A DNA stretch of 64,000 bases. It comes from TPA_inf: Saccharomyces (Eukaryota). The stretch spans positions 32,001 through 96,000 of the forward strand of contig BK006940.2 in the NCBI GenBank assembly GCA_000146045.2, given 5' to 3'. Shown here in pieces: positions 12,393 through 48,418 of the stretch (position 1 is the first letter of the stretch; each line of letters begins with the position of its first letter). Made by a program: the position numbers and the translations under genes. A model generated the notes under the pieces. It was not told the origin of the DNA and searched no databases. It saw only the letters and a list, made by a program, of their open reading frames with translations.

Positions 12393-12654
12393 TATTGGTG
12401 GTTATATTAGCAGATAGGTAAAAAAGGAGAAAGAAGTACTAAGGAAATTGTCGATTTAGTTTTCGTCAAAGATCTTATACTTTGCCAAGAAGAATAGACG
12501 ATATAAACAGAAAAATAAGTGAAAAGAACACGTAAAAAACGGCACATTTTAATATATTTCAAATTTTTTTTTCATCAACGACAAAAGGAATGCATTTTAT
12601 CCACTTTTCGTGTCTCATGACGAGTATACCGATAAACGCCAAATGCGTATTTTA

Positions 12655-13560
12655 TTATCTATTTTGGCCAAAATCAACGTGTCCCGTGGATTCAGCGTGC
12701 CTAGCAACTTCTCTTTCACCCACAAAGGTCATTTGGCAAGTGTTGCATTTGATCTGGGCCTTATGAGTGTTGAAGGAATAGCCAGTTTGCTTCAAATTTG
12801 AGGCCAGTTGCAAAGCTGCTGTTAGAACATCATCTGATTCCGGCTGGTTCTTGTTGAAAACAGTTTTAAACTCGTTCATGGTCAAGGAATCATAGTGGAT
12901 TCCGTTGAACAGTATCAAAATGTAGTTGTCGAACTTGTCCTCGTTGAACTTTTCGATTTTAACAGCGTCAATGTCGACTACATAAATAGCTACTGCGAGT
13001 GCATCGGATATGATACCAATCTCGATGGCTCCACCCCAAGATTCCATTTTCAAAATCCATTGCGCGTAATCTTTGTTAGGTTTGTCCAATATGGCGTCAT
13101 TGAACTTGACGGGGTTGTTGAGGACCTCCTTAGAGACCATCTCCCTGAGGTCACGAACGCTATCTTGTTTGAAGATGCCATAGGCAATAGCATGGAACAG
13201 ACACGAGTTGTCGTCGAGAACAGGATGTACTGATAGGACGTTTTCTCCACTGCCACCAATTGACATCTCAGTGCTCTTCAGCACCCTCTTTGGTTTGGGT
13301 TGTGGTGGTGGCAAACTGAAGCTTTCGTTACTATCAGAGGACTCTATTGTAATCTTTTCACCAGAGTTAATACCCAGCTCGTCCAGCTGGGTTTGTCCCA
13401 AAGAAGCGTCTTCCCCTTGCAAATTGATCCTTTGAGGCGGATATCCAAACCTCATCGTCTTAACATCTACATTGATATGCTCAATAAGATCATTTAGTGT
13501 TGCATCTTGCTTCAAAGTAACGACTTGGTTGATTCCTGCTCCAGTAACTTTCAGTTTCAT
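12655..13560 (-). CDS. OTU1: OTU-family deubiquitinase with N-terminal UBX-like domain and C-terminal C2H2 zinc finger
   Basis: 301 aa. OTU Cys box (…DDNSCLFHAIAYG…) and His box, plus a C-terminal CNTCQ…HAESTGH zinc finger. Confidence 0.9.
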   Translation of the reverse strand: MKLKVTGAGINQVVTLKQDATLNDLIEHINVDVKTMRFGYPPQRINLQGEDASLGQTQLDELGINSGEKITIESSDSNESFSLPPPQPKPKRVLKSTEMSIGGSGENVLSVHPVLDDNSCLFHAIAYGIFKQDSVRDLREMVSKEVLNNPVKFNDAILDKPNKDYAQWILKMESWGGAIEIGIISDALAVAIYVVDIDAVKIEKFNEDKFDNYILILFNGIHYDSLTMNEFKTVFNKNQPESDDVLTAALQLASNLKQTGYSFNTHKAQIKCNTCQMTFVGEREVARHAESTGHVDFGQNR

Positions 13561-13719
13561 CTTGAAAGTTTCTTCTCTTGGTTATCTTCTTCAATGTTAT
13601 CTTGTTTTCAAAGGAAAAAGTTGTTATTTGCCACTGAAATCGGCTTATTTCGCCCTTTACTATTAGTTACTACCATTGCCCTATAGAAACGATATATATT
13701 GGTACGAAGAAAATACAGA

Positions 13720-15744
13720 TCACAACTTCAGTTCTACCAATTGCAGCTTCACCAGTTGATGTAATGAGACAGCAATTGAACGTATGTAGAACAGATTAAA
13801 CAATAGCAAAACGACCACAATCAAGTATAAGAACAACCATGTTTCCATGGTGACCTTGAGACCTTGCTGCTCTGCAATTGCGGGAGCCGTAACAACCGCT
13901 TCTCTTGGTTGTTCAAGGTCAACCTCTTTCAACTTATTTTTTACTTCTTTATCATCTTGCTCCTCTTCCTCCTTGCTGATAGTAATTTGGCACTCTTCGA
14001 CATTGTTCTTGATGAACTTGGAAAGAATACGCTCCATTAATTGCGCAGCCTCCAATTGACCATTCTTGCATCCATTTTCAACCATACCTTTGATCCAACT
14101 GGAACCAGTCCATTCCACCCAAAAGGATACCCGTAACAGACACGTTATTTCGTCATTCCAACGGATTAGATACCTTGTCTTAGTTGAGAAACTACCACCA
14201 CTGGGCACGTTCGGAGTGCGTATGCTACTGATAACCTCATAGTAAGTATCAGGATCTTTTCTCTTTATTACCTCAGCAACATAACATGTCGTGGACTTGG
14301 GCCCCGCAGGAAAGTGCAATGCTTTCTCGTATGAATACTCACGCTTCAAAGTCATGGAAGATCCGTCAATGCTCGTGAAATTTGGAATAGTGGTAATTTG
14401 TGAACCTTCTTGACCCCGTAAAAAATCTAGAAGAAATTCGTTTTGCTCTGAGTTGAACATGATCTCAAAAAGTATACCAGGTGCACAATCGAATGGTAAC
14501 TCCTTGAGAACAAACTCGTTATTGGCCATAGGTTCAGCCGGAAAGCTTGTTGAATGATGATATATTGGACCATCATACTGATACGAGGAATCGGCACGCA
14601 GTTTATACGCTTTCTCTTTTTCTTTATCCGGCGAGGAACTCGTACTATTGGGGGTAGTCTCATTTGTAGAGATATTTTCATCGTCATTTTCATTAGTGTC
14701 ATTATCATTAGCGTCTTTATCATTGTTTTCCTCATCGATGGAGTTTATTGCATCATCAATCTCTTTGCCATTTCCTGACTTTTCTGCTTTAGTATTGATG
14801 TTTTCGCTGGCCATGTCCTTCTGCAACAAGGTTCTTGACCACACTTCTTTCATTAATCCAAATGCAGCATCCCTGGATATAAAACCATTAAAGAGAGTTT
14901 TGCCCATCTTTGTTTCGATGGATATTGCGCTGGGGAACAACCCAGCAGCAGAAGTTTTTTCCATAAACGTGACATCTTCGAACGCAATCAGTACTTTAGC
15001 AATCCAACCAAGAACATTGGAGTTGAAGCAGAGATGCGTTTCTGTTATGTATAGTTTCCCCTGGTAAAGCAGCTCTCTATTCAGCCCACAATTAAAATCA
15101 TCCAGTAGTCTGTCATCTTTAGGAACGGACTTGAATGTCTCATGAAAGTCTTTATTTCTTTGCTCAGACGCATAGTGATAAGGTGTGTCCATGTAACGTT
15201 CTTCCACGAATCGTCTATGATCGTAATTGTCTTCTTTCATTTGGGAAGGAGTGAGTCTTGTCTTGACCTCATCAGGCTTTTCCACCTGTTGCAAGGGAGA
15301 GCCTATTTCAGCAATTGTGGCATTACTGATACGGCGGCTTGATCTTCTTTTGGACCCCATGGAAGGCTCCCTTCTATGTGATATAATGCTTGGTTGCGAA
15401 ACTGGCGAAGTTGGCGTAGTTGATCTAGAAACTGGGGATGGCACGTTTGACTTAAACGAAGAGATCATTCCACTGAAGAACGAGGACGTCGAAGAAGTCC
15501 TTGATTGATCGTGCTTGATCTCTGTAGGGTGTTCATCGGCGGCACTTTGGTTTGTAATCACTACTAAATTCTTGCGTACGTCGTTGGTCTCTGTATTTAG
15601 GGGCACTTCTTGCAGTGACTCAGCTTCAGTATCGCCGGCATTGTCATTGTTACTTGCATGCTCAAAGGGGGGACCCAATTGTTTCACAGAATCAGTACTG
15701 TCCTCATTATCTGATACGGGTTCCCAGTTATCTACATCCGACAT
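13720..15744 (-). CDS. LAM5: GRAM + VASt (StART-like) sterol-transfer protein, C-terminal membrane anchor
   Basis: The long ORF 13720..15750 has two in-frame ATGs: MVMSDVDNW… at 15750 and MSDVDNW… at 15744. I recall the annotated YFL042C product as 674 aa, which implies the downstream ATG at 15744. Asn/Asp-rich low-complexity insert and a C-terminal TM helix. Confidence 0.8.
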   Translation of the reverse strand: MSDVDNWEPVSDNEDSTDSVKQLGPPFEHASNNDNAGDTEAESLQEVPLNTETNDVRKNLVVITNQSAADEHPTEIKHDQSRTSSTSSFFSGMISSFKSNVPSPVSRSTTPTSPVSQPSIISHRREPSMGSKRRSSRRISNATIAEIGSPLQQVEKPDEVKTRLTPSQMKEDNYDHRRFVEERYMDTPYHYASEQRNKDFHETFKSVPKDDRLLDDFNCGLNRELLYQGKLYITETHLCFNSNVLGWIAKVLIAFEDVTFMEKTSAAGLFPSAISIETKMGKTLFNGFISRDAAFGLMKEVWSRTLLQKDMASENINTKAEKSGNGKEIDDAINSIDEENNDKDANDNDTNENDDENISTNETTPNSTSSSPDKEKEKAYKLRADSSYQYDGPIYHHSTSFPAEPMANNEFVLKELPFDCAPGILFEIMFNSEQNEFLLDFLRGQEGSQITTIPNFTSIDGSSMTLKREYSYEKALHFPAGPKSTTCYVAEVIKRKDPDTYYEVISSIRTPNVPSGGSFSTKTRYLIRWNDEITCLLRVSFWVEWTGSSWIKGMVENGCKNGQLEAAQLMERILSKFIKNNVEECQITISKEEEEQDDKEVKNKLKEVDLEQPREAVVTAPAIAEQQGLKVTMETWLFLYLIVVVLLLFNLFYIRSIAVSLHQLVKLQLVELKL

Positions 15745-15989
15745 CACCACTAATCTTTTTGTGTAGTTGCCTTCTTCACCCTTTTCTCAGATAGCGAAAT
15801 GGTTGAGTGTTTTAATATAATTGTCAAGATGCTTTATGAAAAAGGGTGGGAGAAACAAGTCCCCCTGCTCAGCGATACGCGATCTCTCTGATCTCAGACA
15901 TAAAGCAAACATTCTATCATGAGTGACATTGAGGATGACGGTAATTGGTAATATCTGACCTTCTGACCTCCACTCAACACAATGCAGAA

Positions 15990-16925
15990 AGCTATCAAAT
16001 GTTTTGAACCAAACATGAAAGAGATTCAGAAAGTTGCCAAGCCAACGTGATGTCACAGGTCAAAGTTTAAGTGAAGGCTATTGGAATCTGCGGATCAGAC
16101 ATTCACTACTACACGGATGGCCAGGTCAGCGTAAAGTAACCTGGGAAGCCCATGACTTTGGGCCACGAATCCAACGGTGCTGTTCTTGAAATTGAAGTAT
16201 CTCAAACTACTGTAAAGCGGGTGATGCAGTAAGCATATAGCCCTCATACCCAAATAGGTTTACCAAAGAGTTTCTGTGAGGCCATTATAGTTTGCAGCTC
16301 AACATACCATTTGCTGCATCACTGACCGTGACGGCACCCTTTGTCAAGAGTTCGTGGTTAACGTCGACTGCGTTTACTGATTACCGTTACAGTGAATTTC
16401 TAGCAAGAGTCCTCTGTAGATGCCACTATTTGTCGCTCTCCATGTAGTAAGGCCGTCCTAGCTGAAGTGTGGGGAGTAAGCTGTAGTTATAGGTGCTGGA
16501 ACAATTGATCTGCTGGCGGGTGCGGTACTCAGAGGGTTTGGTGTTCATGAGTACACATGATTCCAAGAAAGAGCAAAATGGACAGTTTATAAACGCTATG
16601 AAGAACTGCTATAATCAGAAAAAAAGGAAGCCTGATGGATTCGAGTCCTCAGGTACTCAAAAGAGCGTTGAGAATATGCTAAAATGTGTCAAGAACGGTG
16701 GAACAGTTAAGTAGGTTGATATCCACCCCTCGAATGAAAATGTGGGGACCCTCCCAACGAGATTCCTTCAGAGAGATTACATATAAAGTGAAATTCAAGT
16801 ATGACGATGGTGACTACTCCTTGGCCATTGATTTGATGTCTAGGGATTGTATTAATGTCTATGAGTTGATTACCGATAGGCTACTGGTTGATTTCCTTTC
16901 AAAAAAGCTGCTCAAGCTAAGATAG
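15990..16925 (+). pseudogene. Decayed relic of a sorbitol/xylitol dehydrogenase gene (zinc-dependent medium-chain dehydrogenase, SOR1/XYL2-like)
   Basis: Translating three forward frames gives collinear pieces of a polyol dehydrogenase, interrupted by stops and frameshifts. They are VKAIGICGSDIHYYTDGQVSVK*PGKPMTLGHESNGAVLEIEV (cf. SOR1 AIKATGICGSDIHYY…APMVLGHESSGQVVEVG), HYSLQLNIPFAAS…TAPFVKS (cf. SYNLCPHMAFAAT…DGTLVKY), GAGTIDLLAGAVLRGFG (cf. GAGPVGLLTGAVARAFG), KCVKNGGTVK (cf. VKTTKVGGTMVQ) and FKYDDGDYSLAIDLM…NVYELIT (cf. FRYSFGDYRDAVNLV…NVKPLIT). Confidence 0.8.
16734..16925 (+). CDS. Small 63-codon ORF (YFL041W-A-like) that is the C-terminal fragment of the dehydrogenase relic
   Basis: MKMWGPSQRDSFREITYKVKFKYDDGDYSLAIDLMSRDCINVYELITDRLLVDFLSKKLLKLR lies inside the 16686..16925 ORF. 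It aligns with the C-terminus of sorbitol dehydrogenases. It is likely a pseudogene fragment rather than an independent gene. Confidence 0.4.
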   Translation: MKMWGPSQRDSFREITYKVKFKYDDGDYSLAIDLMSRDCINVYELITDRLLVDFLSKKLLKLR

Positions 16926-17010
16926 GTAAGGTGTTTATAGAATTTATCGAACTGTATCTAAATATTTTTAATATTCTTGTTTTATTACTTTGTGGCTTTT
17001 GTATTCAGTC

Positions 17011-17017
17011 TGCACCC
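17011..17017 (+). promoter_or_regulatory. Aft1-type iron-responsive element core (TGCACCC) upstream of FET5
   Basis: TGCACCC sits 122 bp upstream of the FET5 ATG. FET5 is a known Aft1-regulon member. The flanking base does not fit the extended consensus perfectly. Confidence 0.35.
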
Positions 17018-17138
17018 TGTTTCGCCATCGATTCTTATAATACATACATTTTTATATAAGATCACAGAAAATACGAAGACGTAAAAAAAGAGTTCCGAAT
17101 GAAAGAAGAAAGAATCAAGCACAGGAAGACAAGAAACG

Positions 17139-19007
17139 ATGTTGTTCTACTCGTTCGTGTGGTCTGTACTGGCCGCTAGTGTTGCTTTGGCAAAGACACA
17201 TAAGTTAAACTATACCGCTTCTTGGGTAACTGCCAATCCTGATGGATTGCATGAAAAAAGGATGATTGGTTTTAATGGCGAATGGCCACTTCCAGATATC
17301 CATGTTGAAAAAGGAGATCGTGTTGAGCTTTATTTGACTAACGGCTTTCAAGACAATACTGCTACTTCTCTACATTTCCATGGTCTTTTCCAGAATACGA
17401 GTTTGGGGAACCAGCTTCAAATGGATGGTCCTTCTATGGTGACACAATGTCCCATCGTTCCGGGACAAACATACCTGTACAACTTCACTGTCCCAGAGCA
17501 GGTAGGAACGTTCTGGTACCATGCACACATGGGTGCCCAGTACGGTGACGGTATGAGGGGTGCATTTATCATCCACGATCCGGAGGAGCCCTTCGAATAT
17601 GATCATGAACGAGTCATCACTCTATCGGACCATTATCACGAAAATTATAAAACGGTTACCAAAGAGTTTCTGTCAAGATATAATCCAACCGGTGCTGAAC
17701 CTATTCCTCAAAATATTCTTTTTAATAATACGATGAATGTAACTTTAGATTTTACACCCGGTGAAACGTATCTCTTCAGGTTCTTGAACGTTGGGCTGTT
17801 TGTATCCCAGTATATCATTCTTGAGGATCATGAAATGAGTATAGTAGAGGTGGACGGTGTTTACGTAAAGCCAAACTTTACTGATTCGATATATCTTTCT
17901 GCGGGGCAAAGAATGAGTGTGTTGATTAAAGCTAAAGATAAAATGCCTACAAGAAACTACGCTATGATGCAAATAATGGATGAGACGATGCTTGATGTTG
18001 TCCCACCTGAGTTACAACTCAACCAAACTATCCAAATGAGGTATGGCCACTCGTTGCCGGAGGCACGCGCATTGAACATTGAAGATTGTGACTTGGACCG
18101 CGCCACGAATGACTTTTACCTAGAACCTCTGATTGAGAGAGACCTACTTGCTCACTATGACCACCAAATTGTCATGGATGTAAGAATGGTCAACTTGGGT
18201 GATGGTGTGAAGTATGCATTTTTCAATAATATCACTTACGTCACACCAAAGGTGCCTACTTTGACAACGTTGCTTACCTCAGGAAAGCTTGCGTCAGATC
18301 CTAGAATTTATGGTGATAATATCAATGCGCAGTTATTGAAACATAATGATATCATAGAGGTTGTTCTAAACAATTATGATTCTGGCAGACATCCATTCCA
18401 TTTGCACGGTCATAATTTCCAAATAGTCCAAAAGTCGCCAGGGTTCCATGTTGATGAAGCTTATGACGAATCTGAGCAAGATGAAATGACCGTCCCTTAT
18501 AACGAATCTGCGCCATTACAACCGTTCCCTGAGAGGCCGATGGTGAGAGATACAGTGGTTCTTGAACCTAGTGGACATGTTGTCCTGAGATTTAGAGCTG
18601 ACAACCCTGGTGTCTGGTATTTCCATTGTCATGTAGATTGGCACTTACAACAAGGTTTGGCTTCGGTCTTTATTGAGGCACCCGTTTTACTTCAGGAAAG
18701 GGAAAAGCTTAATGAGAACTATCTGGATATATGCAAAGCCGCTGATATTCCGGTAGTTGGTAATGCTGCAGGTCATTCGAATGATTGGTTTGACTTAAAA
18801 GGATTACCAAGACAACCTGAGCCACTACCAAAGGGATTTACTACTGAAGGATATTTGGCATTGATTATTTCAACCATTATCGGTGTCTGGGGCCTATATT
18901 CCATTGCTCAGTATGGTATTGGCGAGGTTATCCCTAACGATGAGAAGGTGTACCACACGTTAAGGGAAATCTTGGCTGAAAATGAAATAGAGGTTTCTCG
19001 CGGCTAA
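17139..19007 (+). CDS. FET5: Multicopper ferroxidase (Fet3 paralog), vacuolar iron transport
   Basis: 622 aa. Signal peptide, copper-binding motifs HFHG, HAHMG and HCHVDWH, and a C-terminal TM helix. Confidence 0.95.
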   Translation: MLFYSFVWSVLAASVALAKTHKLNYTASWVTANPDGLHEKRMIGFNGEWPLPDIHVEKGDRVELYLTNGFQDNTATSLHFHGLFQNTSLGNQLQMDGPSMVTQCPIVPGQTYLYNFTVPEQVGTFWYHAHMGAQYGDGMRGAFIIHDPEEPFEYDHERVITLSDHYHENYKTVTKEFLSRYNPTGAEPIPQNILFNNTMNVTLDFTPGETYLFRFLNVGLFVSQYIILEDHEMSIVEVDGVYVKPNFTDSIYLSAGQRMSVLIKAKDKMPTRNYAMMQIMDETMLDVVPPELQLNQTIQMRYGHSLPEARALNIEDCDLDRATNDFYLEPLIERDLLAHYDHQIVMDVRMVNLGDGVKYAFFNNITYVTPKVPTLTTLLTSGKLASDPRIYGDNINAQLLKHNDIIEVVLNNYDSGRHPFHLHGHNFQIVQKSPGFHVDEAYDESEQDEMTVPYNESAPLQPFPERPMVRDTVVLEPSGHVVLRFRADNPGVWYFHCHVDWHLQQGLASVFIEAPVLLQEREKLNENYLDICKAADIPVVGNAAGHSNDWFDLKGLPRQPEPLPKGFTTEGYLALIISTIIGVWGLYSIAQYGIGEVIPNDEKVYHTLREILAENEIEVSRG

Positions 19008-19349
19008 TTAAACAAGAAAATATAAAAGAAAAATGAAAGAAGTTTATATTCATATTGATGATTTGCAATCCTAAAAAAAATGTAGCACTGTAAATACTGC
19101 TTACTATTGAGTATTTTCATTTTGTTCATTCCATTCCCTATATAATATTCATACGTAATCAAATCTATTGCTTTTTTTTTCTCTTTTATTTCGTTGTTTT
19201 AGCTCTGACGTTGTGACGCTCAGCCAAGAACGTCACAAAAAAAGGATGAAAATCAAAAAACAAAATATTCAATAAGTGTAATATGAGAAGAGAAAAAAGA
19301 AAGAACAAGTACAGTTTCTAACATTATACTTTAAAAATTATTAAGCACA

Positions 19350-20972
19350 ATGACAGCAATGAAAGCTATTGTCTGGAGACTTCCCAAGATGCCGAAAATC
19401 AAAATTACAAAAACTTATGAAGTTACGAAAATTACGGCGATATTGACACTAGTAGGATTTATAATGGGCCTTGAGGTGCCGTCATTGGCAACTTTTCTCA
19501 CAAACAAAACGTTTAATGAGTACTTCAAGTATCCAACTCCTTTACAACAAGGTTTACTCATGGGGTCCACCCCCCTGGGTGGTATCATGGGATGTTTTAT
19601 TTGCTGCATAATGAATGATAGATTCAGTAGAATATATCAATTTCAATCGGGAATAATAATATGGAATATTGTTACGTTATTGAACTTTTGTATTTGGGAT
19701 ATATTAGGTTTACTAATTTGCCGGATGATCAAGGGTATGATCCTTGGGAACTTTTCAATTTTAGTAGCATCCTACGCAAATGAAGTTATCCCCCGCGGCA
19801 AGCGTGGAAGTACGATGAGCTATATTCAATTGTGTTTAACCATTGGAATTCTTGTTATGCATTATTTGTGCATTGCATTAAGTCTATGGGATTCTCATTT
19901 TGCGTTCCGTATAGCGTGGTGCATAGGAATCATTCCTGGATTACTGTTCTGGATGGCTAGCTACGCTCTACCTGAATCTTATCACTGGCTAGTACTACAT
20001 GGGAAGATGAGTGAAGCTCAGGAAATTCAGCACAATTTAGCCAAAAAGTTTAATGAAAGCCAGCCAAGGGATGCAGTCCCTGAGATGAGTAAGATCGAAT
20101 TAGCAGGAGATTTTTGGATTGGAGTTAATGATTTGGACTTCTCCAAAAAATTACCTCGGGGTTCGTTTAAGCCTTTGATTCTTGGAATGACTTTACAGTT
20201 ATTGGTTCAATTTAGCGGTATAAACATTATCCTTGGTTATATTACATACATTTGCGAGATTGTAGGGCTTGAAGGCAATGTAAAACTATTCACCAGTTCC
20301 ATTCCATATTTCATCAACATGGTTTTGAGCTTGTTACCGATTACATTCATTGATTACACTAGCAGAAAGCTAATTACCTTGTTGGGTGGCTTTCCCATTA
20401 GTGGGTTGCTCATTACAATCGGCGCATTATTTGTGAAGTATGGTCAAGACACCAAGCCCATCGACGGCAATAGGAGTTTAGTTTGGTCAATTGGAGAAAA
20501 CCCGTTTGTGGGAGGATGGATTCTAACTTTATGCTTTCTAATTGTTGGAATATTTGCCATGAGCCTTTCCAGTATACCTTGGGTTTACACGAATGAAATG
20601 TTGCCCTCACGAGTGAAAGTTAAGGGATTTGCCATTTGCGTAACGTTTGGATGGTTGGGCAATTTTATTTTAACGTTTCTATGCCCTGTGATGATTGAAA
20701 GATTAAAAGGCACAACATTTATAATATTTGGATCTTTGACATTCTTGATATCACTTTCAGTTTTGATTTGGTTCCCAGAAACAAAGGGTATGAGCATAGA
20801 AGATATTGATAAATTCTTCGAATTTGAGAGTAAAGAGGGCACCAATTTACATGGGGAAAAGGGTATCAAAACGCCGGACTCAAATTCTAATGGCGGTTCT
20901 ACAAGATCCTCCCAAGAAGGGCAATTGCATAAACCTATAAAACTGAAAAGCGATGAAGAGATGATCATATGA
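19350..20972 (+). CDS. Putative MFS sugar-transporter-like membrane protein
   Basis: 540 aa with about 12 predicted TM helices and a sugar-porter-like fold. Position fits YFL040W. Confidence 0.8.
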   Translation: MTAMKAIVWRLPKMPKIKITKTYEVTKITAILTLVGFIMGLEVPSLATFLTNKTFNEYFKYPTPLQQGLLMGSTPLGGIMGCFICCIMNDRFSRIYQFQSGIIIWNIVTLLNFCIWDILGLLICRMIKGMILGNFSILVASYANEVIPRGKRGSTMSYIQLCLTIGILVMHYLCIALSLWDSHFAFRIAWCIGIIPGLLFWMASYALPESYHWLVLHGKMSEAQEIQHNLAKKFNESQPRDAVPEMSKIELAGDFWIGVNDLDFSKKLPRGSFKPLILGMTLQLLVQFSGINIILGYITYICEIVGLEGNVKLFTSSIPYFINMVLSLLPITFIDYTSRKLITLLGGFPISGLLITIGALFVKYGQDTKPIDGNRSLVWSIGENPFVGGWILTLCFLIVGIFAMSLSSIPWVYTNEMLPSRVKVKGFAICVTFGWLGNFILTFLCPVMIERLKGTTFIIFGSLTFLISLSVLIWFPETKGMSIEDIDKFFEFESKEGTNLHGEKGIKTPDSNSNGGSTRSSQEGQLHKPIKLKSDEEMII

Positions 20973-21259
20973 TACACGGTCCAATGGATAAACATTTTTT
21001 ATCAACACTATGATATATAAATATAATAGTTTTTCGTATATATATTCCTTTTTTTGGTCAATTTTTGAAATTTTCGTAGAAAAGGGAGAGACAAAACACA
21101 TTATATCAATGAAAACGTACAAAAAGTAGATAAAGTCAGTGCTTAAACACGTCTTTTCCTTAAAAATACTTTATTATTTTTATTTTATTGAGAGGGTGGT
21201 TTAAAAATAGAAATAGAGAGAGAGGTACATACATAAACATACGCGCACAAAAGCAGAGA

Positions 21260-22696
21260 TTAGAAACACTTGTGGTGAACGATAGATGGACCACTTTCGT
21301 CGTATTCTTGTTTTGAGATCCACATTTGTTGGAAGGTAGTCAAAGAAGCCAAGATAGAACCACCAATCCAGACGGAGTACTTTCTTTCTGGAGGAGCAAT
21401 GATCTTGACCTTCATGGAAGATGGAGCCAAAGCGGTGATTTCCTTTTGCATTCTTTCGGCAATACCTGGGAACATGGTGGTACCACCGGACATAACGATG
21501 TTACCGTATAATTCCTTACGGACATCGACATCACACTTCATGATGGAGTTGTAAGTAGTTTGGTCAATACCGGCAGATTCCAAACCCAAAACAGAAGGAT
21601 GGAACAAAGCTTCTGGGGCTCTGAATCTTTCGTTACCAATAGTGATGACTTGACCATCTGGAAGTTCGTAGGATTTTTCAATTGAAGAAGATTGAGCAGC
21701 GGTTTGCATTTCTTGTTCGAAGTCCAAGGCGACGTAACATAGTTTTTCCTTGATGTCACGGACAATTTCTCTTTCAGCAGTGGTGGAGAAAGAGTAACCA
21801 CGTTCACTCAAGATCTTCATCAAGTAGTCAGTCAAATCTCTACCGGCCAAATCGATTCTCAAAATGGCGTGAGGTAGAGAGAAACCAGCGTAAATTGGAA
21901 CGACGTGAGTAACACCATCACCGGAATCCAAAACAATACCAGTAGTTCTACCGGAAGAGTACAAGGACAAAACGGCTTGGATGGAAACGTAGAAGGCTGG
22001 AACGTTGAAAGTTTCAAACATAATTTGAGTCATCTTTTCTCTGTTTGATTTAGGGTTCATTGGAGCTTCAGTCAAAAGAACAGGGTGTTCTTCTGGGGCA
22101 ACTCTCAATTCGTTGTAGAAGGTATGATGCCAGATCTTTTCCATATCGTCCCAGTTGGTGACAATACCGTGTTCAATTGGGTAACGTAAAGTCAAGATAC
22201 CTCTCTTGGATTGAGCTTCATCACCAACGTAGGAGTCTTTTTGACCCATACCGACCATGATACCTTGGTGTCTTGGTCTACCGACGATAGATGGGAAGAC
22301 AGCACGAGGAGCGTCGTCACCGGCAAAACCGGCTTTACACATACCAGAACCGTTATCAATAACCAAAGCAGCAACCTCTAAACATATAATATAGCAACAA
22401 AAAGAATGAAGCAATCGATGTTAGTACATGAGACTTAGTAACAGTAGCAAATAAAAGAAGAATATCACTATCACTTATCACGAAAATATTTCAGTTTTTT
22501 TTTTTTTTCCAAATTTCAAGCCCCTATTTATTCCAATAATATCGTGGTTATTACAGATCAGTCAATATAGGAGGTTATGGGAGAGTGAAAAATAGTAAAA
22601 AAAGGTAAAAGAGAAATCTCTCGAGCAATTGGGACCGTGCAATTCTTCTTACAGTTAAATGGGATGGTGCAAGCGCTAGAACATACCAGAATCCAT
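21260..22696 (-). CDS. ACT1: Actin; two exons 22687..22696 (ATGGATTCTG) and 21260..22377
   Basis: Exon 2 translates to the complete yeast actin from …[17 protein letters not shown]… to …IVHHKCF. Exon 1 encodes M-D-S plus the first nucleotide of the next codon. The spliced product is 375 aa. Confidence 0.97.
22378..22686 (-). other. ACT1: ACT1 spliceosomal intron (309 nt)
   Basis: Read on the minus strand: 5' splice site GTATGT at 22686..22681, branch point TACTAAC at 22435..22429, and 3' splice site TAG ending at 22378. Confidence 0.95.
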
Positions 22697-24335: not shown

Positions 24336-25709
24336 ATGAGAGAAATCATTCATATCTCGACAGGTCAGTGTGGTAACCAAATTGGTGCTGCATTCTGGGA
24401 AACTATCTGTGGTGAGCACGGTTTGGATTTCAATGGGACATATCACGGCCATGACGATATCCAGAAGGAGAGACTGAACGTGTACTTCAACGAGGCATCT
24501 TCTGGGAAGTGGGTTCCAAGATCTATTAACGTCGATCTAGAACCTGGGACGATTGACGCAGTACGCAATTCTGCCATCGGGAATTTGTTTAGACCTGACA
24601 ATTATATCTTTGGGCAAAGTTCTGCGGGCAACGTGTGGGCCAAGGGTCACTACACAGAAGGTGCTGAGCTTGTAGACAGCGTCATGGATGTTATTAGACG
24701 AGAGGCCGAAGGATGCGACTCCCTTCAAGGTTTCCAGATCACACATTCTCTTGGTGGTGGTACCGGTTCCGGTATGGGTACGCTTTTGATCTCGAAGATT
24801 AGGGAAGAGTTTCCTGATCGTATGATGGCCACCTTCTCCGTCTTGCCCTCTCCGAAGACTTCTGACACCGTTGTCGAACCATACAATGCCACGTTGTCTG
24901 TGCACCAATTGGTAGAACACTCTGATGAAACATTCTGTATCGATAACGAAGCACTTTATGACATCTGTCAAAGGACCTTAAAGTTGAATCAACCTTCTTA
25001 TGGAGATTTGAACAACTTGGTCTCGAGCGTCATGTCTGGTGTGACAACTTCATTGCGTTATCCCGGCCAATTGAACTCTGATTTGAGAAAGTTGGCTGTT
25101 AATCTTGTCCCATTCCCACGTTTACATTTCTTCATGGTCGGCTACGCTCCATTGACGGCAATTGGCTCTCAATCATTTAGATCTTTGACTGTCCCTGAAT
25201 TAACACAGCAAATGTTTGATGCCAAGAACATGATGGCTGCTGCCGATCCAAGAAACGGTAGATACCTTACCGTTGCAGCCTTCTTTAGAGGTAAAGTTTC
25301 CGTTAAGGAGGTGGAAGATGAAATGCATAAAGTGCAATCTAAAAACTCAGACTATTTCGTGGAATGGATCCCCAACAATGTGCAAACTGCTGTGTGTTCT
25401 GTCGCTCCTCAAGGTTTGGACATGGCTGCTACTTTCATTGCTAACTCCACATCTATTCAAGAGCTATTCAAGAGAGTTGGTGACCAATTTTCCGCTATGT
25501 TCAAAAGAAAAGCTTTCTTGCACTGGTATACTAGTGAAGGTATGGACGAATTGGAATTCTCTGAGGCTGAATCTAATATGAATGATCTGGTTAGCGAATA
25601 CCAACAATACCAAGAGGCTACTGTAGAAGATGATGAAGAAGTCGACGAAAATGGCGATTTTGGTGCTCCACAAAACCAAGATGAACCAATCACTGAGAAT
25701 TTTGAATAA
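24336..25709 (+). CDS. TUB2: Beta-tubulin
   Basis: 457 aa, [17 protein letters not shown]…, with the GGGTGSG tubulin signature and an acidic C-terminal tail. Confidence 0.97.
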
Positions 25710-25865
25710 TTAAGTTGCTTTCCTTTCTTTTTCTTACCTTTCTTCTTCTCTAGGATTGAAGCACTTGGAGCAAAATAAACAAAAATCAAAAAAACTAATT
25801 AAATATCTTTAAAATATTACCGTACGAAAAAATTTATACCATTCCCTACTGAAGTATGTAATTCA

Positions 25866-25908
25866 AAATATATATATGTATATGTATATGTACATATATA
25901 TGTATATA
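25866..25908. repeat. (TA)n/(TATG)n microsatellite in the TUB2 3' region
   Basis: Sequence reads atatatatgtatatgtatatgtacatatatatgtatata. Confidence 0.8.
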
Positions 25909-26000
25909 CTATCTTAACAACCTTTAACCTTCCGAGCTATTGATTTTTGATCCTCACTTCAGCGGCTAAAAAAAAAAAAAACACCCCGAGTATTAGTGAA

Positions 26001-26033
26001 TATAGATATATATATATATATATATATATATAA
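26001..26033. repeat. (TA)14 microsatellite
   Basis: Sequence reads tatagatatatatatatatatatatatatataa. Confidence 0.85.
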
Positions 26034-26781
26034 GGAGGCCGATAAAAAAGAACTTGCAATATTACGCAGATCAGGGATTTACTAAAAGAAAAGTAATAAA
26101 GGACTGCTGCTTCCAAAGAAAGAAGATTACAACATGTTGATGATTGTGGAAGCGGTGCTTATGGTATTCTACCTGTTTCCCCAGAATTTTGTTGAGAACT
26201 AATCATGAACAAAAAACTGTGTTTTATATTGTGATTTCCATAATTCCATTACAATTTTGTACCAAGCATAGGTCTGATTATCAACAATACGCTGCTTCAG
26301 TCCTTTTATTTAGCAGTACGTTGCTTGTTATTCCTTCATCATCTAGCCGCCATAGTTGGAACCCCGCGTGAAAAATGATATACATTTCGTATTCAGTGAT
26401 CTGGGGTTGCATGAATAAAAATTCTGGGTAAATTGTGGGTGGGTACACTTTGGCAAAGGCTAACCCCGAATTTTTCATTATTTCGGTTTTTTTTCTTTTT
26501 AATTTCAAGAAAATGGAAAACTTTAAGAATAACGACGTTGATTTTAGCCTCTCCGTGAAGATATTGGTAAAAAGATAGGTGTCGTCGATTATAGCCACCA
26601 GCTTTTACAAAAGATACCACCAGCTTGTGAATAGTTTTTAAGAAAGTCGCTTTAAAAGGACTACCTACCCCAGATCAGAAACAAAAGCAGATCTCCTGTT
26701 CATATACCATTTGTATTCTGCTTCTTTACATTTTATACATTCCTTGGATCAGTTCCTCCCCCTCTTTGATATTCACTCAAT

Positions 26782-29700
26782 ATGCTGAGACCGGCCTATA
26801 AATCGCTCGTGAAAACATCCCTGTTACAAAGACGGTTAATATCTTCAAAGGGATCTAAGCTGTTTAAACCATCTCCGGACTCAACAAGTACAATATTAAT
26901 ATCTGAAGACCCCCTTGTAACAGGCTCGTCCCCAACCTCATCTACAACATCAGGTATAATAAGTTCAAATGATTTCCCTTTGTTCAACAAAAATAGGAAA
27001 GACGCCAAGAGCAGCATATCCTACCAATGGAAAAATCCTTCAGAATTAGAGTTTGACCCTTTCAATAAATCGCATGCCTCAGCAGTAACCTCGATGACAA
27101 GAACTAGAGACGTTATGCAATTATGGTCTCTGTTAGAAGCATGCTTGCAATCGAATCTAATGAAAAGAGCGTTCTCTATATTGGAGTCACTGTACCTGGT
27201 ACCTGAACATAAGCAGCGATTTATCGAGGATTATAACATGTACTTGAATTCATTTTCCAAAAATGACCCTAATTTCCCTATTTTAAAAATGAACGAAAAA
27301 TTAACAAATGATTTGGAGACAAGTTTTAAAGACGTTAATTATAATGACAAAACTTTGGCAATAATGATTCATCACGCTTTGAACTTCCATTCAACGACAA
27401 GCTCGATGCTTTTGAAGCCTATAATCTCTGCCTACTTGAAAATGAGCGTGAATGGTATTAGGGAAATTTTCTCCTGCCTAGATATTTTGACCATTTCAGA
27501 TCTGAATATTTTAATGAATGACTTAAAGGTTATAACACCATCGCAACTGCCAAATTCTGTAAGACCAATATTAGAATCACTTACGCTATCTCCTACACCT
27601 GTAAATAATATTGAAAATGAGGAGGGTTTGAACAAAGTGGAAGCTGAGAACGATTCAAAATTGCATAAAGCATCAAATGCAAGCTCTGATTCTATAAAAA
27701 AACCTTCCTTGGATCCTCTTCGGGAAGTTTCATTCCACGGTTCAACAGAAGTCTTGTCAAAAGACGCTGAAAAGCTTATAGCTGTAGACACTATTGGAAT
27801 GAGAGTAATCCGGCATACTTTGCTGGGATTATCATTAACGCCGGAACAGAAAGAGCAAATTTCTAAATTCAAATTTGATGCCAATGATAATGTTTTGAAA
27901 ATGAAACCTACGAAAAACGACGATAATAATAATTCTATAAATTTTTTTGAAATTTACAATTCACTGCCAACATTAGAGGAAAAGAAGGCATTCGAAAGCG
28001 CATTAAATATATTTAACCAAGATAGACAAAAGGTACTTGAAAACCGTGCAACGGAAGCCGCAAGAGAGCGTTGGAAGCACGATTTTGAAGAGGCAAAAGC
28101 TAGAGGTGACATTTCAATTGAAAAGAATTTAAACGTTAAGTTGTGGAAATGGTATAATGAAATGTTACCTCTAGTGAAGGAAGAAATTAATCATTGTAGG
28201 TCATTATTGTCAGAAAAGCTATCAGATAAGAAAGGCTTGAATAAAGTTGACACGAACCGTCTTGGATATGGACCATACTTAACCTTGATTGACCCTGGTA
28301 AAATGTGTGTCATCACCATTTTGGAACTATTAAAGTTAAATTCTACGGGTGGTGTTATTGAAGGTATGAGGACCGCAAGAGCGGTTATATCAGTGGGTAA
28401 AGCTATTGAAATGGAATTTAGATCCGAGCAGGTTTTGAAAAGCGAATCTCAAGCGTTCAGAGATGTTAACAAGAAATCACCAGAATTCAAAAAACTGGTA
28501 CAAAATGCTAAATCTGTATTCAGATCATCTCAAATTGAGCAGTCGAAAATTTTGTGGCCTCAGAGTATTAGGGCCAGAATCGGTTCGGTATTAATCTCAA
28601 TGTTGATTCAAGTCGCTAAGGTATCTGTGCAAGGTGTTGACCCTGTGACAAAAGCTAAGGTTCACGGTGAAGCTCCAGCTTTTGCGCATGGTTATCAGTA
28701 CCACAATGGTTCCAAATTGGGTGTCTTGAAGATTCACAAGACTTTGATTCGTCAATTGAACGGTGAAAGATTGATTGCCTCTGTCCAACCACAATTATTA
28801 CCAATGTTGGTGGAACCCAAACCCTGGGTTAATTGGAGATCAGGTGGATATCATTATACACAATCTACCCTTTTAAGAACAAAAGACTCACCCGAACAAG
28901 TAGCATATTTGAAAGCTGCTTCCGATAATGGTGATATAGACCGCGTTTATGATGGTTTGAATGTTCTGGGTAGAACACCGTGGACTGTCAACAGAAAAGT
29001 TTTTGATGTGGTTTCACAAGTTTGGAATAAAGGTGAAGGTTTCCTAGATATTCCAGGTGCACAAGACGAAATGGTTTTACCACCAGCTCCTCCGAAGAAC
29101 TCCGACCCTTCCATTTTGAGAGCCTGGAAACTTCAAGTCAAAACAATTGCTAATAAATTCTCTTCAGATAGATCAAATAGATGTGATACGAACTACAAAT
29201 TGGAAATTGCAAGAGCATTTTTGGGTGAAAAGCTGTACTTTCCACATAATTTGGACTTTAGGGGACGTGCTTATCCTTTGTCTCCACATTTCAATCATCT
29301 TGGTAATGATATGAGTCGTGGCCTTTTGATTTTTTGGCACGGTAAAAAATTAGGACCTTCTGGTCTCAAGTGGTTAAAGATTCATTTGTCAAATCTGTTC
29401 GGATTTGATAAGTTACCCCTAAAGGATCGTGTTGCATTTACTGAGTCTCATTTGCAGGACATCAAGGATTCTGCGGAAAATCCCTTAACGGGAGATCGTT
29501 GGTGGACTACTGCTGATAAGCCATGGCAAGCATTGGCCACATGCTTTGAATTGAATGAAGTTATGAAAATGGATAATCCAGAGGAGTTTATCTCTCATCA
29601 ACCGGTTCACCAAGACGGTACTTGCAATGGTTTGCAACATTATGCTGCCTTGGGTGGTGACGTTGAAGGGGCTACTCAAGTGAATCTGGTTCCAAGCGAT

Positions 29701-30837
29701 AAACCACAAGATGTTTATGCTCATGTTGCAAGGTTGGTGCAAAAAAGATTAGAAATTGCAGCAGAAAAAGGAGACGAAAACGCCAAAATTTTGAAGGATA
29801 AGATTACCAGAAAGGTTGTCAAGCAAACCGTCATGACAAACGTTTATGGTGTTACCTACGTCGGGGCTACTTTTCAAATTGCTAAACAATTAAGCCCAAT
29901 ATTTGATGATCGTAAAGAAAGCTTAGACTTTTCTAAATACCTAACCAAACATGTTTTTAGTGCTATCCGCGAGTTATTTCATAGTGCGCATTTAATTCAG
30001 GATTGGTTAGGTGAAAGTGCGAAAAGAATTTCCAAATCTATCAGGTTGGATGTTGATGAAAAATCGTTCAAGAACGGTAATAAACCCGACTTTATGTCAT
30101 CCGTCATATGGACGACACCACTAGGACTACCAATTGTTCAGCCATATCGTGAAGAAAGCAAAAAGCAAGTTGAGACCAATTTGCAAACTGTCTTTATTAG
30201 CGATCCTTTCGCTGTCAACCCTGTTAATGCAAGAAGGCAAAAGGCAGGTCTTCCACCGAACTTCATCCATTCGCTGGATGCTTCACATATGTTGCTAAGT
30301 GCAGCAGAATGTGGAAAGCAAGGATTAGATTTCGCATCAGTTCATGATTCTTACTGGACGCATGCATCTGATATAGACACTATGAATGTGGTGTTAAGGG
30401 AACAGTTTATCAAACTCCATGAGGTAGATCTGGTTTTAAGATTGAAGGAGGAGTTTGACCAAAGGTATAAGAATTACGTCAAGATTGGAAAGTTGAAGAG
30501 ATCTACGGATTTGGCTCAAAAGATTATTAGAATCCGTAAAGATTTATCCAGAAAATTAGGAAGAAGTACTACATTAGCAGATGAAATTTATTTTGAGAAA
30601 AAAAGGCAAGAATTATTAAACAGCCCTCTAATAGAAGATAGAAATGTTGGTGAAAAGATGGTTACAACTGTATCATTATTTGAAGACATCACTGACTTGG
30701 ACGCACTTGAACTAGAAAACGGTGGAGATGAAAATAGCGGTATGAGTGTTCTTTTACCGTTGAGATTACCTGAAATCCCACCTAAAGGTGATTTTGATGT
30801 TACAGTATTGAGAAACAGTCAATATTTTTTCTCGTGA
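26782..30837 (+). CDS. RPO41: Mitochondrial DNA-directed RNA polymerase (T7-phage-like single-subunit RNAP)
   Basis: 1351 aa. N-terminal mitochondrial targeting sequence, and conserved C-terminal polymerase motifs such as …[16 protein letters not shown]… and …HDSYWTHA…. Confidence 0.95.
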
Positions 30838-47343: not shown

Positions 47344-48213
47344 TTATATACCAATCTCTTTGTCAGGAATTTGATTATCACGTTTCAACCATTCTAGTGC
47401 TAATGGATGCAAACTATTCACTTTACTAATAACAACCTTATTGTTGTCATTTTCAAAGGCCACTTGTCCATTAACTTTAGCATTGACCACTTCAGAGAAC
47501 TCTACGTCTTTCTGATAATCTAAATTATCCACAATCTTACCTGATTTCATATGGTATACTTGGTTAGGCCATTTGGCCAAGCCGTCAAAAATATGTGTAG
47601 CGTAGACCACTGAGCATCTTCTGGTTTCGGTCTCCCACTTTAAAAACTCCAGAAGTCTTGCTCTGGCAATAACATCGAGATCCACAGTGACCTCATCAAG
47701 TAGTAAAACTCTCCAAGGTTTCAAGAGCCCCATGGCTAACTGAACTCTTCTCTTTTGTCCATCACTTAACCTGTGCATTCTCCAACGTACATCGATGTCC
47801 AGGATTCTAACCAATCTTTCACCTCTTTCCCTAAAATGATCGAATCCAATACTTTTTAATAGTTCCAAGACGCCGATATCCCTATTAATGATACTCATAT
47901 GGCACCATTCCGTACCTAGATAAGTGGTCGTTTGGTAGTTCGTCGAATCTTCAACACTTTCATCATCGTCCACTTGATTCATAGATAATGGACTGAATGG
48001 ATCAAGACCATTGACCAGGATTTTTCCATCAAGGCAAAGATGCTTACCGCTTAGTAATTTCAAAAGGGTGGATTTACCAGCACCATTGGCACCCACAACT
48101 AAAGATCTTGTATTCCATGGGATTTGAAGATTGATATCAACAACTGACGGATCGGAGCTTTCTTTGAATTTGTACGTTAGGTTACGCACCTCAATAGCAA
48201 ATTGGGAAACCAT
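47344..48213 (-). CDS. CAF16: ABC-type ATPase (non-transporter), CCR4-NOT associated
   Basis: 289 aa. Walker A GANGAGKST, ABC signature LSDGQKRR, and Walker B LLLDE. Confidence 0.9.
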   Translation of the reverse strand: MVSQFAIEVRNLTYKFKESSDPSVVDINLQIPWNTRSLVVGANGAGKSTLLKLLSGKHLCLDGKILVNGLDPFSPLSMNQVDDDESVEDSTNYQTTTYLGTEWCHMSIINRDIGVLELLKSIGFDHFRERGERLVRILDIDVRWRMHRLSDGQKRRVQLAMGLLKPWRVLLLDEVTVDLDVIARARLLEFLKWETETRRCSVVYATHIFDGLAKWPNQVYHMKSGKIVDNLDYQKDVEFSEVVNAKVNGQVAFENDNNKVVISKVNSLHPLALEWLKRDNQIPDKEIGI

Positions 48214-48418
48214 CTTGAGAGTTATCTAATATCTTGATATCTTATGCAGGAGTACTGGTTTTCTCCATACTAAAAATCTCTCTTTCAGAATTTTCGTTTT
48301 TTCTTATTTGAGTCATCCTCGAAGAAATTTCCGCAGCGAATTTTAAAGAAGCACTTTATAATAATACCTTACATATGAGTTTGTTTCTATGTCATGGGTA
48401 TATAAGGTATATTGTATG

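Follow-up and report, generated by a model that had tools for sequence, protein, structure and literature searches.

A decayed polyol dehydrogenase gene, the whole-genome-duplication twin of XYL2, lies between LAM5 and FET5 and contains YFL041W-A

The plus strand between LAM5 and FET5, at positions 15982-16948 of the 64,000 nucleotides of DNA analysed here (the window), is almost certainly a unitary pseudogene, or 'gene remnant', left by the gene for a Zn-dependent medium-chain polyol dehydrogenase that S. cerevisiae once had. This relic is the whole-genome duplication (WGD) ohnolog of XYL2/YLR070C and not a copy of SOR1/SOR2, and the annotated 63-codon ORF YFL041W-A is an accidental open stretch inside it. 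The initial annotation of this DNA had recognised a decayed polyol dehydrogenase gene, a dead paralog and not a new gene; both points hold, and the second can now be refined to a syntenic WGD paralog of XYL2 that falls outside the SOR1/SOR2 clade. The locus, its lesion counts and its paralogy were already known from a 2023/2025 preprint, which names the gene remnant REMYFL041W-A (Dietrich, Magwene and McCusker, bioRxiv 10.1101/2023.09.07.545205); what we add is a polarised codon-position test and the observation of an Asp-to-Ser replacement.

In a frameshift-aware protein-DNA alignment, positions 15982-16948 match, in collinear order, a zinc-type polyol dehydrogenase of 344 aa, P0001, which is encoded by the intact ortholog on the S. 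paradoxus-like sequence L001. This protein aligns to 15982-16945 with 69% amino acid identity, across 7 frameshifts and 10 stops, and the DNA alignment of the relic to L001:3358-4392 agrees with the protein-guided one. Using tblastn, P0001 yielded collinear HSPs in frames 1, 3, 2, 1 and 3 over 15982-16942 (summed E 2.5e-48), and the relic was also detected with T. delbrueckii XYL2 (E 1.2e-21), a Saccharomyces Xyl2-type protein (E 5.6e-17) and S. cerevisiae Sor1 (E 6.5e-15), E-values that rule out a chance similarity. The weakest HSP is the YFL041W-A portion (E 0.004-0.013 against Xyl2/Sor1), and the similarity extends well beyond that ORF, as the initial annotation had held. These dehydrogenase queries gave no other significant tblastn match within the 64-kb window.

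The stitched translation of the relic matches the Pfam domain ADH_N (GroES-like) at 8e-14, above the curated cut-off, followed by ADH_zinc_N (Rossmann) at 3.7e-4, below its cut-off, as expected of a decayed sequence; the two domains occur in the order of a polyol dehydrogenase. It also matches a solved xylitol dehydrogenase (PDB 7y9p, 1e-30) and the human sorbitol dehydrogenase (SDH) structure (7e-29). The catalytic zinc of such enzymes is held by the Cys of GICGSD, the His-Glu of GHE and the Glu of EPL. The motifs GICGSDIHYY and GHESNG persist in the relic, the EPL glutamate is substituted (stop-MPL), and GAGTID stands where GxGxxG is expected, leaving traces of an incomplete motif set.

The first codon of the relic is a conserved ATG, and its last nucleotide lies about 23 nt beyond the stop codon of YFL041W-A, so that the extent of 15990-16925 given by the initial annotation has to be replaced by 15982-16948. 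A conserved TGCACCC element at 17011 falls outside the relic. The remnant, its flanking genes and its eight blocks are as follows, in-frame stops being written out within the translations.

13720..15744, minus strand: LAM5 (YFL042C, GRAM/VASt protein), left syntenic anchor (ORF list; GRAM and VASt in the L001 ortholog).
15982..16948, plus strand: whole gene remnant (P0001 protein alignment, DNA alignment to L001, tblastn).
15982..16044, plus strand: block 1, N-terminus MQKAIKCFEPNMKEIQKVAKP from the conserved ATG, in the frame of 15982; then a 7-nt deletion, frameshift 1 at 16045.
16047..16202, plus strand: block 2, catalytic-zinc region VMSQVKV, stop, VKAIGICGSDIHYYTDGQVSVK, stop, PGKPMTLGHESNGAVLEIEVS (three-frame translation, alignments, Pfam ADH_N); TAA at 16068, TAA at 16137, a 6-nt in-frame deletion and, at the end, a 1-nt deletion, frameshift 2 at 16203.
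16205..16321, plus strand: block 3, NYCKAGDAVSI, stop, PSYPNRFTKEFL, stop, GHYSLQLNIPFAAS (three-frame translation, alignments); TAG at 16238, TGA at 16277 and, at the end, a 1-nt deletion, frameshift 3 at 16322.
16324..16542, plus strand: block 4, DRDGTLCQEFVVNVDCVY, stop, LPLQ, stop, ISSKSPL, stop, MPLFVALHVVRPS, stop, LKCGE, stop, AVVIGAGTIDLLAGAVLRGFG, holding the Rossmann GxGxxG region (alignments); stops at 16378, 16393, 16417, 16459 and 16477 and, at the end, a 14-nt deletion, frameshift 4 at 16543.
16547..16747, plus strand: block 5, MSTHDSKKEQNGQFINAMKNCYNQKKRKPDGFESSGTQKSVENMLKCVKNGGTVK, stop, VDIHPSNENVG (alignments); TAG at 16712, in-frame deletions of 15 nt and 6 nt and, at the end, a 1-nt deletion, frameshift 5 at 16748.
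16750..16767, plus strand: block 6, PPNEIP (protein-DNA alignment); then a 1-nt deletion, frameshift 6 at 16768.
16770..16889, plus strand: block 7, REITYKVKFKYDDGDYSLAIDLMSRDCINVYELITDRLLV, 40 codons (alignment and translation); at the end, a 16-nt deletion, frameshift 7 at 16890.
16895..16945, plus strand: block 8, true C-terminal end PFKKAAQAKIGKVFIEF (alignments), in a frame different from that of YFL041W-A and extending beyond its stop.
16734..16925, plus strand: YFL041W-A, annotated 63-codon ORF (translation check), corresponding to chrVI 48734-48925 (PMC7801573) with a window offset of 32000.
17139..19007, plus strand: FET5 (YFL041W, multicopper oxidase), right syntenic anchor (ORF list, L001 neighbour, homolog search).

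The frameshift-tolerant alignment thus counts 10 in-frame stops and 7 frameshifting deletions (7, 1, 1, 14, 1, 1 and 16 nt), to which 3 in-frame deletions (6, 15 and 6 nt) are added; in block 4 the alignment is poor at about 16385-16425, where compensating +/-1 indels may be hidden. With other guide proteins (Xyl2, Sor1 and those of T. delbrueckii and V. polyspora), 7-8 frameshifts and 8-10 stops were obtained. All indels relative to the L001 ortholog are deletions in the relic, and they sum to 68 nt in the DNA alignment (967 nt in the relic, 1035 nt in the intact ortholog); the initial annotation was right that the relic is shorter than an intact gene, and its figure of about 60 nt is corrected accordingly. 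The relic lacks the uninterrupted ORF of about 340-360 codons of a working gene, its longest open stretches measuring 51-79 codons. The peptides quoted in the initial annotation were all found in the three-frame translation of 15900-17000. One of them, LTVTAPFVKS, is present, but its VKS tail is an out-of-frame read-through; past the frameshift at 16322, the homologous sequence continues in a different frame as DRDGTLCQEF.

A syntenic comparison of the kind proposed in the initial annotation shows an intact dehydrogenase gene in the same interval of L001. This sequence is collinear with positions 12622-22593 of the window (88.6% identity) and presents the order OTU1, LAM5, the 344-aa ADH_N/ADH_zinc_N gene encoding P0001, FET5, the YFL040W ortholog and ACT1, the relic sitting at the native slot of the intact gene. 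Identity between the window and L001 is 89-91% in flanking coding sequences, 82-85% in intergenic DNA and 79.6% in the relic, divergence levels that fit a S. paradoxus-like origin of L001. P0001 is orthologous to the relic by position and by sequence (about 80% nucleotide identity, shared derived features) and differs from it in having an open frame of 344 codons under purifying selection. Our search with the FET5 protein for the LAM5-FET5 interval of sensu stricto species returned hardly any relatives at 70-95% and one short usable contig, L009, and a metagenome scan with P0001 retrieved nothing but an unrelated locus, 28% identical. Two dehydrogenases 43-45% identical (P0049 and P0041) were set aside, their gene contexts being those of non-Saccharomyces XYL2 loci and not of FET5-adjacent orthologs.

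In pre-duplication yeasts, XYL2 lies between RGR1 and FET5: T. delbrueckii and K. lactis share the single order OTU1-x-LAM-RGR1(Med14)-XYL2-FET5-MEF1-FYV7-PET309-SPC3. This order is divided in Saccharomyces between an XYL2 track (LAM6-RGR1-XYL2-MEF1-FYV7-PET309-SPC3) and the track of the window (OTU1-LAM5-relic-FET5), a double conserved synteny that makes the relic and XYL2 duplicated partners, as are LAM5 and LAM6. In V. polyspora, too, the slot of the relic is the position of XYL2. The assignment rests on synteny, since the relic and XYL2 both form long branches and a sequence tree is insufficient: in our neighbour-joining (NJ) tree, both Saccharomyces copies branch outside the pre-WGD/SOR cluster, with weak basal nodes (9-60% bootstrap). 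XYL2/YLR070C and its orthologs (P0029 and P0030) belong to the same medium-chain dehydrogenase/reductase (MDR) polyol dehydrogenase family as the relic and descend from the same ancestral locus. XYL2 remains intact, with a product of 356 aa, and the relic is about 37% identical to it. The FET5-adjacent copy is shorter, at 344 aa, carries the insertion HPSNENVG and reads FMS where XYL2 has FVD; this copy had strongly diverged before its death.

The decay itself is neutral. With L009 as outgroup, changes specific to S. cerevisiae are spread evenly over codon positions 1, 2 and 3 (27, 27 and 26; total 80) in the 3' two-thirds of the relic covered by this count, whereas those specific to L001 concentrate at third positions (4, 3 and 17; total 24); the binomial p is 3e-8. 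The gene has evolved neutrally on the S. cerevisiae branch, at its native site and with 17 disabling lesions, and under purifying selection on the sister branch. A first timing estimate, which took the pairwise dN/dS of the relic (0.25, against 0.04-0.11 for neighbouring genes) to place the loss about one-third along the branch, was superseded by this polarised count. Equal rates at all codon positions place the loss close to the beginning of the S. cerevisiae branch, suggesting that the gene was inactivated when S. paradoxus split off or shortly afterwards. The WGD twin of XYL2 kept its ancestral place directly upstream of FET5, and since its inactivation it has drifted neutrally and accumulated stops and deletions; it encodes no dehydrogenase, and YFL041W-A is left as a chance open stretch. 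Within Saccharomyces this gene has decayed twice independently, once in S. cerevisiae and once in the species of L009. As a case of gene loss after duplication the relic is clean and datable, and it offers a local yardstick of the neutral rate beside FET5.

Mobile subtelomeric SOR copies exist in S. cerevisiae (10.1101/2023.09.07.545205) and the relic is about as similar to Sor1 as to Xyl2 (36-37% identity), which could suggest that a copy of SOR1/SOR2 or XYL2, now dead, was dispersed ectopically or by retroposition and landed between LAM5 and FET5. A recent copy would closely match its source, at far more than the observed 37% or so, and the slot is both the ancestral position of XYL2 and occupied by an intact gene in the sister species. 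SOR1/SOR2 (YJR159W/YDL246C) share with the relic the enzyme family and the motifs GICGSDIHYY and GHES.G, but are subtelomeric, variable in copy number and without synteny to this chromosome-internal locus; in the NJ tree they form a separate clade with 100% bootstrap, outside of which the relic pairs with P0001, also with 100%. Synteny refutes the ectopic origin, to which we leave a vanishingly small probability. The same near-zero probability applies to a null allele specific to S288C or laboratory strains of a gene intact in other S. cerevisiae. Null alleles with a single lesion are frequent among strains of this species, according to the preprint, which reports no intact allele of this gene in 94 + 1011 S. 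cerevisiae genomes (10.1101/2023.09.07.545205). The load of lesions and the 79.6% identity to the sister ortholog imply a long neutral decay, and three other S. cerevisiae-type contigs, 98.9-99.8% identical to the relic (one spanning it fully, two covering its 3' part only), are all decayed, the full-length one, 1.1% divergent, retaining all 10 stops and every indel; the strain-specific reading is effectively refuted.

It is more debatable, though still very improbable, that YFL041W-A is a genuine small gene, an exapted dehydrogenase fragment producing a functional 63-aa peptide. The ORF has an ATG start and is identical in the three contigs just mentioned, an identity that among near-identical isolates is uninformative on selection. 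It is catalogued as an uncharacterised gene, and its SGD entry is based on fungal homology and on detection by RT-PCR, as far as the preprint's citation of Kessler 2003 conveys (10.1101/2023.09.07.545205); the preprint itself classes it as dubious, and PMC7801573 treats it as an alcohol dehydrogenase gene. The relic accounts wholly for this homology to real genes, since 40 of the 63 codons (codons 13-52, 16770-16889) are taken from the old reading frame, codons 1-12 and 53-63 being outside it as products of frameshifts. The initial annotation had called YFL041W-A the C-terminal fragment of the relic; it is indeed a leftover open stretch, but not the extreme C-terminus, as the last 17 or so ancestral codons lie in another frame at 16895-16945. 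Given what is established about the fold, a 40-residue slice from the Rossmann-domain end of an MDR enzyme cannot fold independently or bind zinc or a cofactor, and the 3' two-thirds of the relic, over which changes on the S. cerevisiae branch are spread evenly among codon positions, include this ORF. The locus probably yields no functional product, and YFL041W-A should be dropped from counts of genes of unknown function, of de novo genes or proto-genes and of alcohol dehydrogenase genes.

Gene relics of S. cerevisiae of the same feature class as the one adjacent to FET5 were reportedly described by Lafontaine et al. in 2004 ('Gene relics'). In the preprint, REMYFL041W-A spans 47982-48942 (window 15982-16942), with 7 frameshifts and 10 stops, and is read as a lost WGD paralog of XYL2; its text has 'chromosome IV', whereas its coordinates are those of chromosome VI (10.1101/2023.09.07.545205). 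Our end of the relic lies 6 nt beyond the published one, where the ortholog has its stop codon. According to the same preprint, S. mikatae and S. arboricola carry the gene intact and have lost the XYL2 twin instead, and S. paradoxus N44/CBS432 also has an intact copy. It further describes other remnants of the same class (such as REMYDR439C-A and REMYKL162C-A), former genes at their native sites with many stops and frameshifts and partly mis-annotated as small ORFs, which derive from other parent gene families. The LAM5-FET5 relic is not mentioned in two papers on pseudogenes and unannotated genes (PMC2876123 and PMC3161974). In our own analysis, nothing was found that contradicts the pseudogene reading.

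Where the second Rossmann beta-strand ends, the relic and its intact ortholog present a Ser (FMSTHDSKKE), at a position where all other aligned XYL2/SOR proteins have the NAD-specifying Asp (FVD). The residue aligned there is Asp203 in human SDH and an Ala in 1E3J, a ketose reductase that depends on NADP(H). From this replacement one may tentatively suggest, as a possibility that we consider rather doubtful, that the lost gene was not a redundant second xylitol dehydrogenase but a neofunctionalised enzyme that evolved fast and had changed its use of cofactor. If the enzyme did use NADP(H), a distinct polyol/ketose reductase activity linked to this cofactor would have disappeared from S. cerevisiae and, independently, from the species of L009, and would persist in S. 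paradoxus.

The stretch corresponds to S. cerevisiae chromosome VI 32001-96000. The translation of its 63-codon ORF at 16734-16925 is the YFL041W-A product, and a published table places YFL041W-A at chrVI 48734-48925 (PMC7801573), giving an offset of exactly 32000. The bounds of the interval come from the ORF list:

13720-15744, - strand: LAM5, one bound of the relic interval
16734-16925: YFL041W-A, 63-codon ORF within the relic
17139-19007, + strand: FET5, other bound of the relic interval

The dehydrogenase peptides quoted in the initial annotation are all present in the three-frame translation of 15900-17000. A tblastn search with P0001, the intact ortholog described below, reached a summed E of 2.5e-48 from five HSPs that are collinear across 15982-16942 and use three frames, and the region was also recovered with a Saccharomyces Xyl2-type protein (E 5.6e-17), S. 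cerevisiae Sor1 (E 6.5e-15) and T. delbrueckii XYL2 (E 1.2e-21). These dehydrogenases matched no second site under E = 0.5 in the rest of the 64 kb. A hand-stitched translation of the relic matched Pfam ADH_N (8e-14), the xylitol dehydrogenase 7Y9P (1e-30) and the human sorbitol dehydrogenase 1PL6 (7e-29) of the PDB. Judged from these scores, the similarity is beyond chance by a wide margin. It is not confined to YFL041W-A, whose HSP is the weakest of all.

With the stitched translation as query, one close protein was obtained, P0001 (344 aa, 62% identity), which is encoded on the 10-kb contig L001 together with OTU1, a GRAM/VASt protein (LAM5), a multicopper oxidase (FET5), a sugar transporter (YFL040W) and actin. 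The window is collinear with L001 over 12622-22593 (88.6% identity), and the syntenic LAM5-FET5 interval, which the initial annotation had proposed to compare, contains an intact dehydrogenase gene there. Identity between window and L001 is 89-91% in flanking coding sequences, 82-85% in intergenic DNA and 79.6% in the relic on ungapped columns only (72.5% with gaps counted). These values fit the well-known divergence between S. cerevisiae and S. paradoxus, and L001, labelled only 'synthetic metagenome', is probably S. paradoxus. Searches of a large protein collection with the dehydrogenase and FET5 yielded hardly any orthologs from sensu stricto Saccharomyces (for FET5, a 100% match followed by 68% for the next best, two fragments aside), so that intact orthologs missing from these searches are not evidence of absence in nature.

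Lesions were counted with a purpose-written, frameshift-tolerant dynamic-programming alignment of protein to DNA. [quoted passage not shown]

16045, 16203, 16322, 16543, 16748, 16768, 16890: frameshifts
16068, 16137, 16477: TAA stops
16238, 16417, 16459, 16712: TAG stops
16277, 16378, 16393: TGA stops

With Xyl2, Sor1, T. delbrueckii or V. polyspora proteins as guides, 7-8 frameshifts and 8-10 stops were obtained. Compensating single-base indels may be hidden in a poorly aligning patch at ~16385-16425. In the nucleotide alignment with the intact gene, all indels are deletions on the S. cerevisiae side, seven frameshifting (7, 1, 1, 14, 1, 1 and 16 nt) and three in-frame (6, 15 and 6 nt); their sum, 68 nt, exactly explains the length of the relic (967 nt) relative to the intact gene (1035 nt).

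With a pairwise dN/dS of 0.25 to L001, the relic exceeds OTU1, LAM5, FET5 and YFL040W (0.04-0.11). Changes were polarised with L009, a short contig from a more distant Saccharomyces species (79% identity in FET5) that spans the gene's 3′ two-thirds. In this part, 80 changes are specific to S. cerevisiae, distributed 27/27/26 over codon positions 1/2/3, and 24 to L001, distributed 4/3/17 (binomial p = 3e-8; position bias, Fisher p = 0.002). Bases misaligned near frameshifts may raise the S. cerevisiae count somewhat but cannot produce the position pattern. The codon-position counts indicate that the S. cerevisiae copy has lacked coding constraint along essentially its entire branch after the split, and that purifying selection acts on the sister copy on L001.

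In the pre-duplication species T. delbrueckii and K. lactis, the gene order is OTU1-x-LAM-RGR1(Med14)-XYL2-FET5-MEF1-FYV7-PET309-SPC3, and V. polyspora also keeps a dehydrogenase immediately upstream of FET5. The Saccharomyces XYL2-type gene lies in the context LAM6-RGR1-XYL2-MEF1-FYV7-PET309-SPC3, and the window carries OTU1-LAM5-relic-FET5. The ancestral locus is split over two Saccharomyces tracks, a classic double conserved synteny, and by this synteny XYL2 and the relic are whole-genome-duplication twins, as are LAM6 and LAM5. In a neighbour-joining tree, relic and P0001 form a pair (100% bootstrap) outside the SOR1/SOR2 clade (100%); the resolution of the tree does not reach the deeper nodes, since both Saccharomyces copies sit on long branches. 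With Xyl2, Sor1 and pre-duplication XYL2 proteins the relic shares only 36-38% identity. The observation of a relic is confirmed, and its interpretation as a decayed dehydrogenase is supported and can be sharpened to an XYL2 ohnolog that died at about the time when S. cerevisiae and S. paradoxus separated.

The relic is present in three other S. cerevisiae-type contigs (98.9-99.8% identity). The only one covering it entirely, L011, retains all ten stops and all indels and carries an additional 2-nt deletion at 15993-15994. Its polymorphism is unevenly spread: six substitutions cluster in the relic's 5′-terminal segment 16016-16052, and the remainder has only 3 differing sites.

A second decayed copy lies upstream of FET5 on L009:

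L009 1-681 (Logan SRR31481546 contig): decayed dehydrogenase copy

Over 680 nt, this copy shows 8 frameshifts and 3 stops, none in common with S. cerevisiae; it keeps the 14-nt and 15-nt segments lost there and has a private 29-nt deletion. Since the lesions are unshared, the gene died at least twice. Some of the L009 lesions could be assembly errors, as FET5 on this contig is called as two ORFs (585-2021 and 1990-2724), reflecting either a real frameshift or such an error; eleven lesions in 680 nt are nevertheless far above one in ~2 kb.

YFL041W-A, described initially as the C-terminal fragment of the relic, is indeed relic-derived, but only the 40 codons bounded by the frameshifts at 16768 and 16890 (REITYK...DRLLV, 16770-16889) keep to the ancestral frame. 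Frameshift readings make up the first 12 (MKMWGPSQRDSF) and the last 11 codons (DFLSKKLLKLR) of the ORF, and frameshift-tolerant alignment locates the true C-terminus of the former gene, 17 codons long, at 16895-16945 in a different frame. With only 40 codons in the ancestral frame, YFL041W-A is a by-product of the relic, and its 'fungal homology' is inherited and not evidence of function. Its inclusion in 2021 among 'genes encoding for alcohol production' (PMC7801573) shows a relic-derived ORF propagating as if it were a gene.

The relic has been described as REMYFL041W-A (47982-48942, window 15982-16942), a lost WGD paralog of XYL2 that in S288c contains seven frameshifts and ten stops (Dietrich, Magwene and McCusker, bioRxiv 10.1101/2023.09.07.545205; PMC12157680). 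According to this preprint, the gene is intact in S. paradoxus N44/CBS432, S. mikatae and S. arboricola, more intact yet still disrupted in other S. paradoxus strains, a remnant in S. kudriavzevii, and intact in 0 of 94 + 1011 S. cerevisiae genomes; YFL041W-A is proposed for the dubious class. Our independent analysis reproduces its numbers, and the finding is correct and already known. The preprint text says 'chromosome IV', and its coordinates are those of chromosome VI.

A small residue of novelty concerns the cofactor. The relic and P0001 have in common three derived traits that no other aligned family member shows: an insertion of two residues (HPSNENVG), a shorter variable loop, and FMSTHDSKKE where all other aligned XYL2/SOR proteins have 'FVD...':

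16547-16576; P0001 residues ~197-207 (gene L001 3358-4392): FMSTHDSKKE

In human sorbitol dehydrogenase, the residue aligned with the Ser of this motif is Asp203; in 1E3J, an NADP(H)-dependent ketose reductase, it is Ala. Asp at this MDR position selects NAD over NADP; its replacement by Ser suggests, as a lead and not a result, that the lost enzyme may have had an altered cofactor preference.

Two other elements were noted, and no tRNA genes were found in the window:

17011-17017: TGCACCC, 122-128 nt upstream of the FET5 ATG, just outside the relic
25815-26521, - strand: RUF21 (RNA of unknown function 21), full-length Rfam match, 708.7 bits

TGCACCC is the core motif of the iron-responsive element of Aft1/Aft2. 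Counting both strands, the 64 kb contain it only 5 times, and the copy upstream of FET5 is kept with its flanks in L001. RUF21, the sole Rfam family exceeding its gathering score in the window, sits between the ORFs 24336-25709 and 26782-30837.
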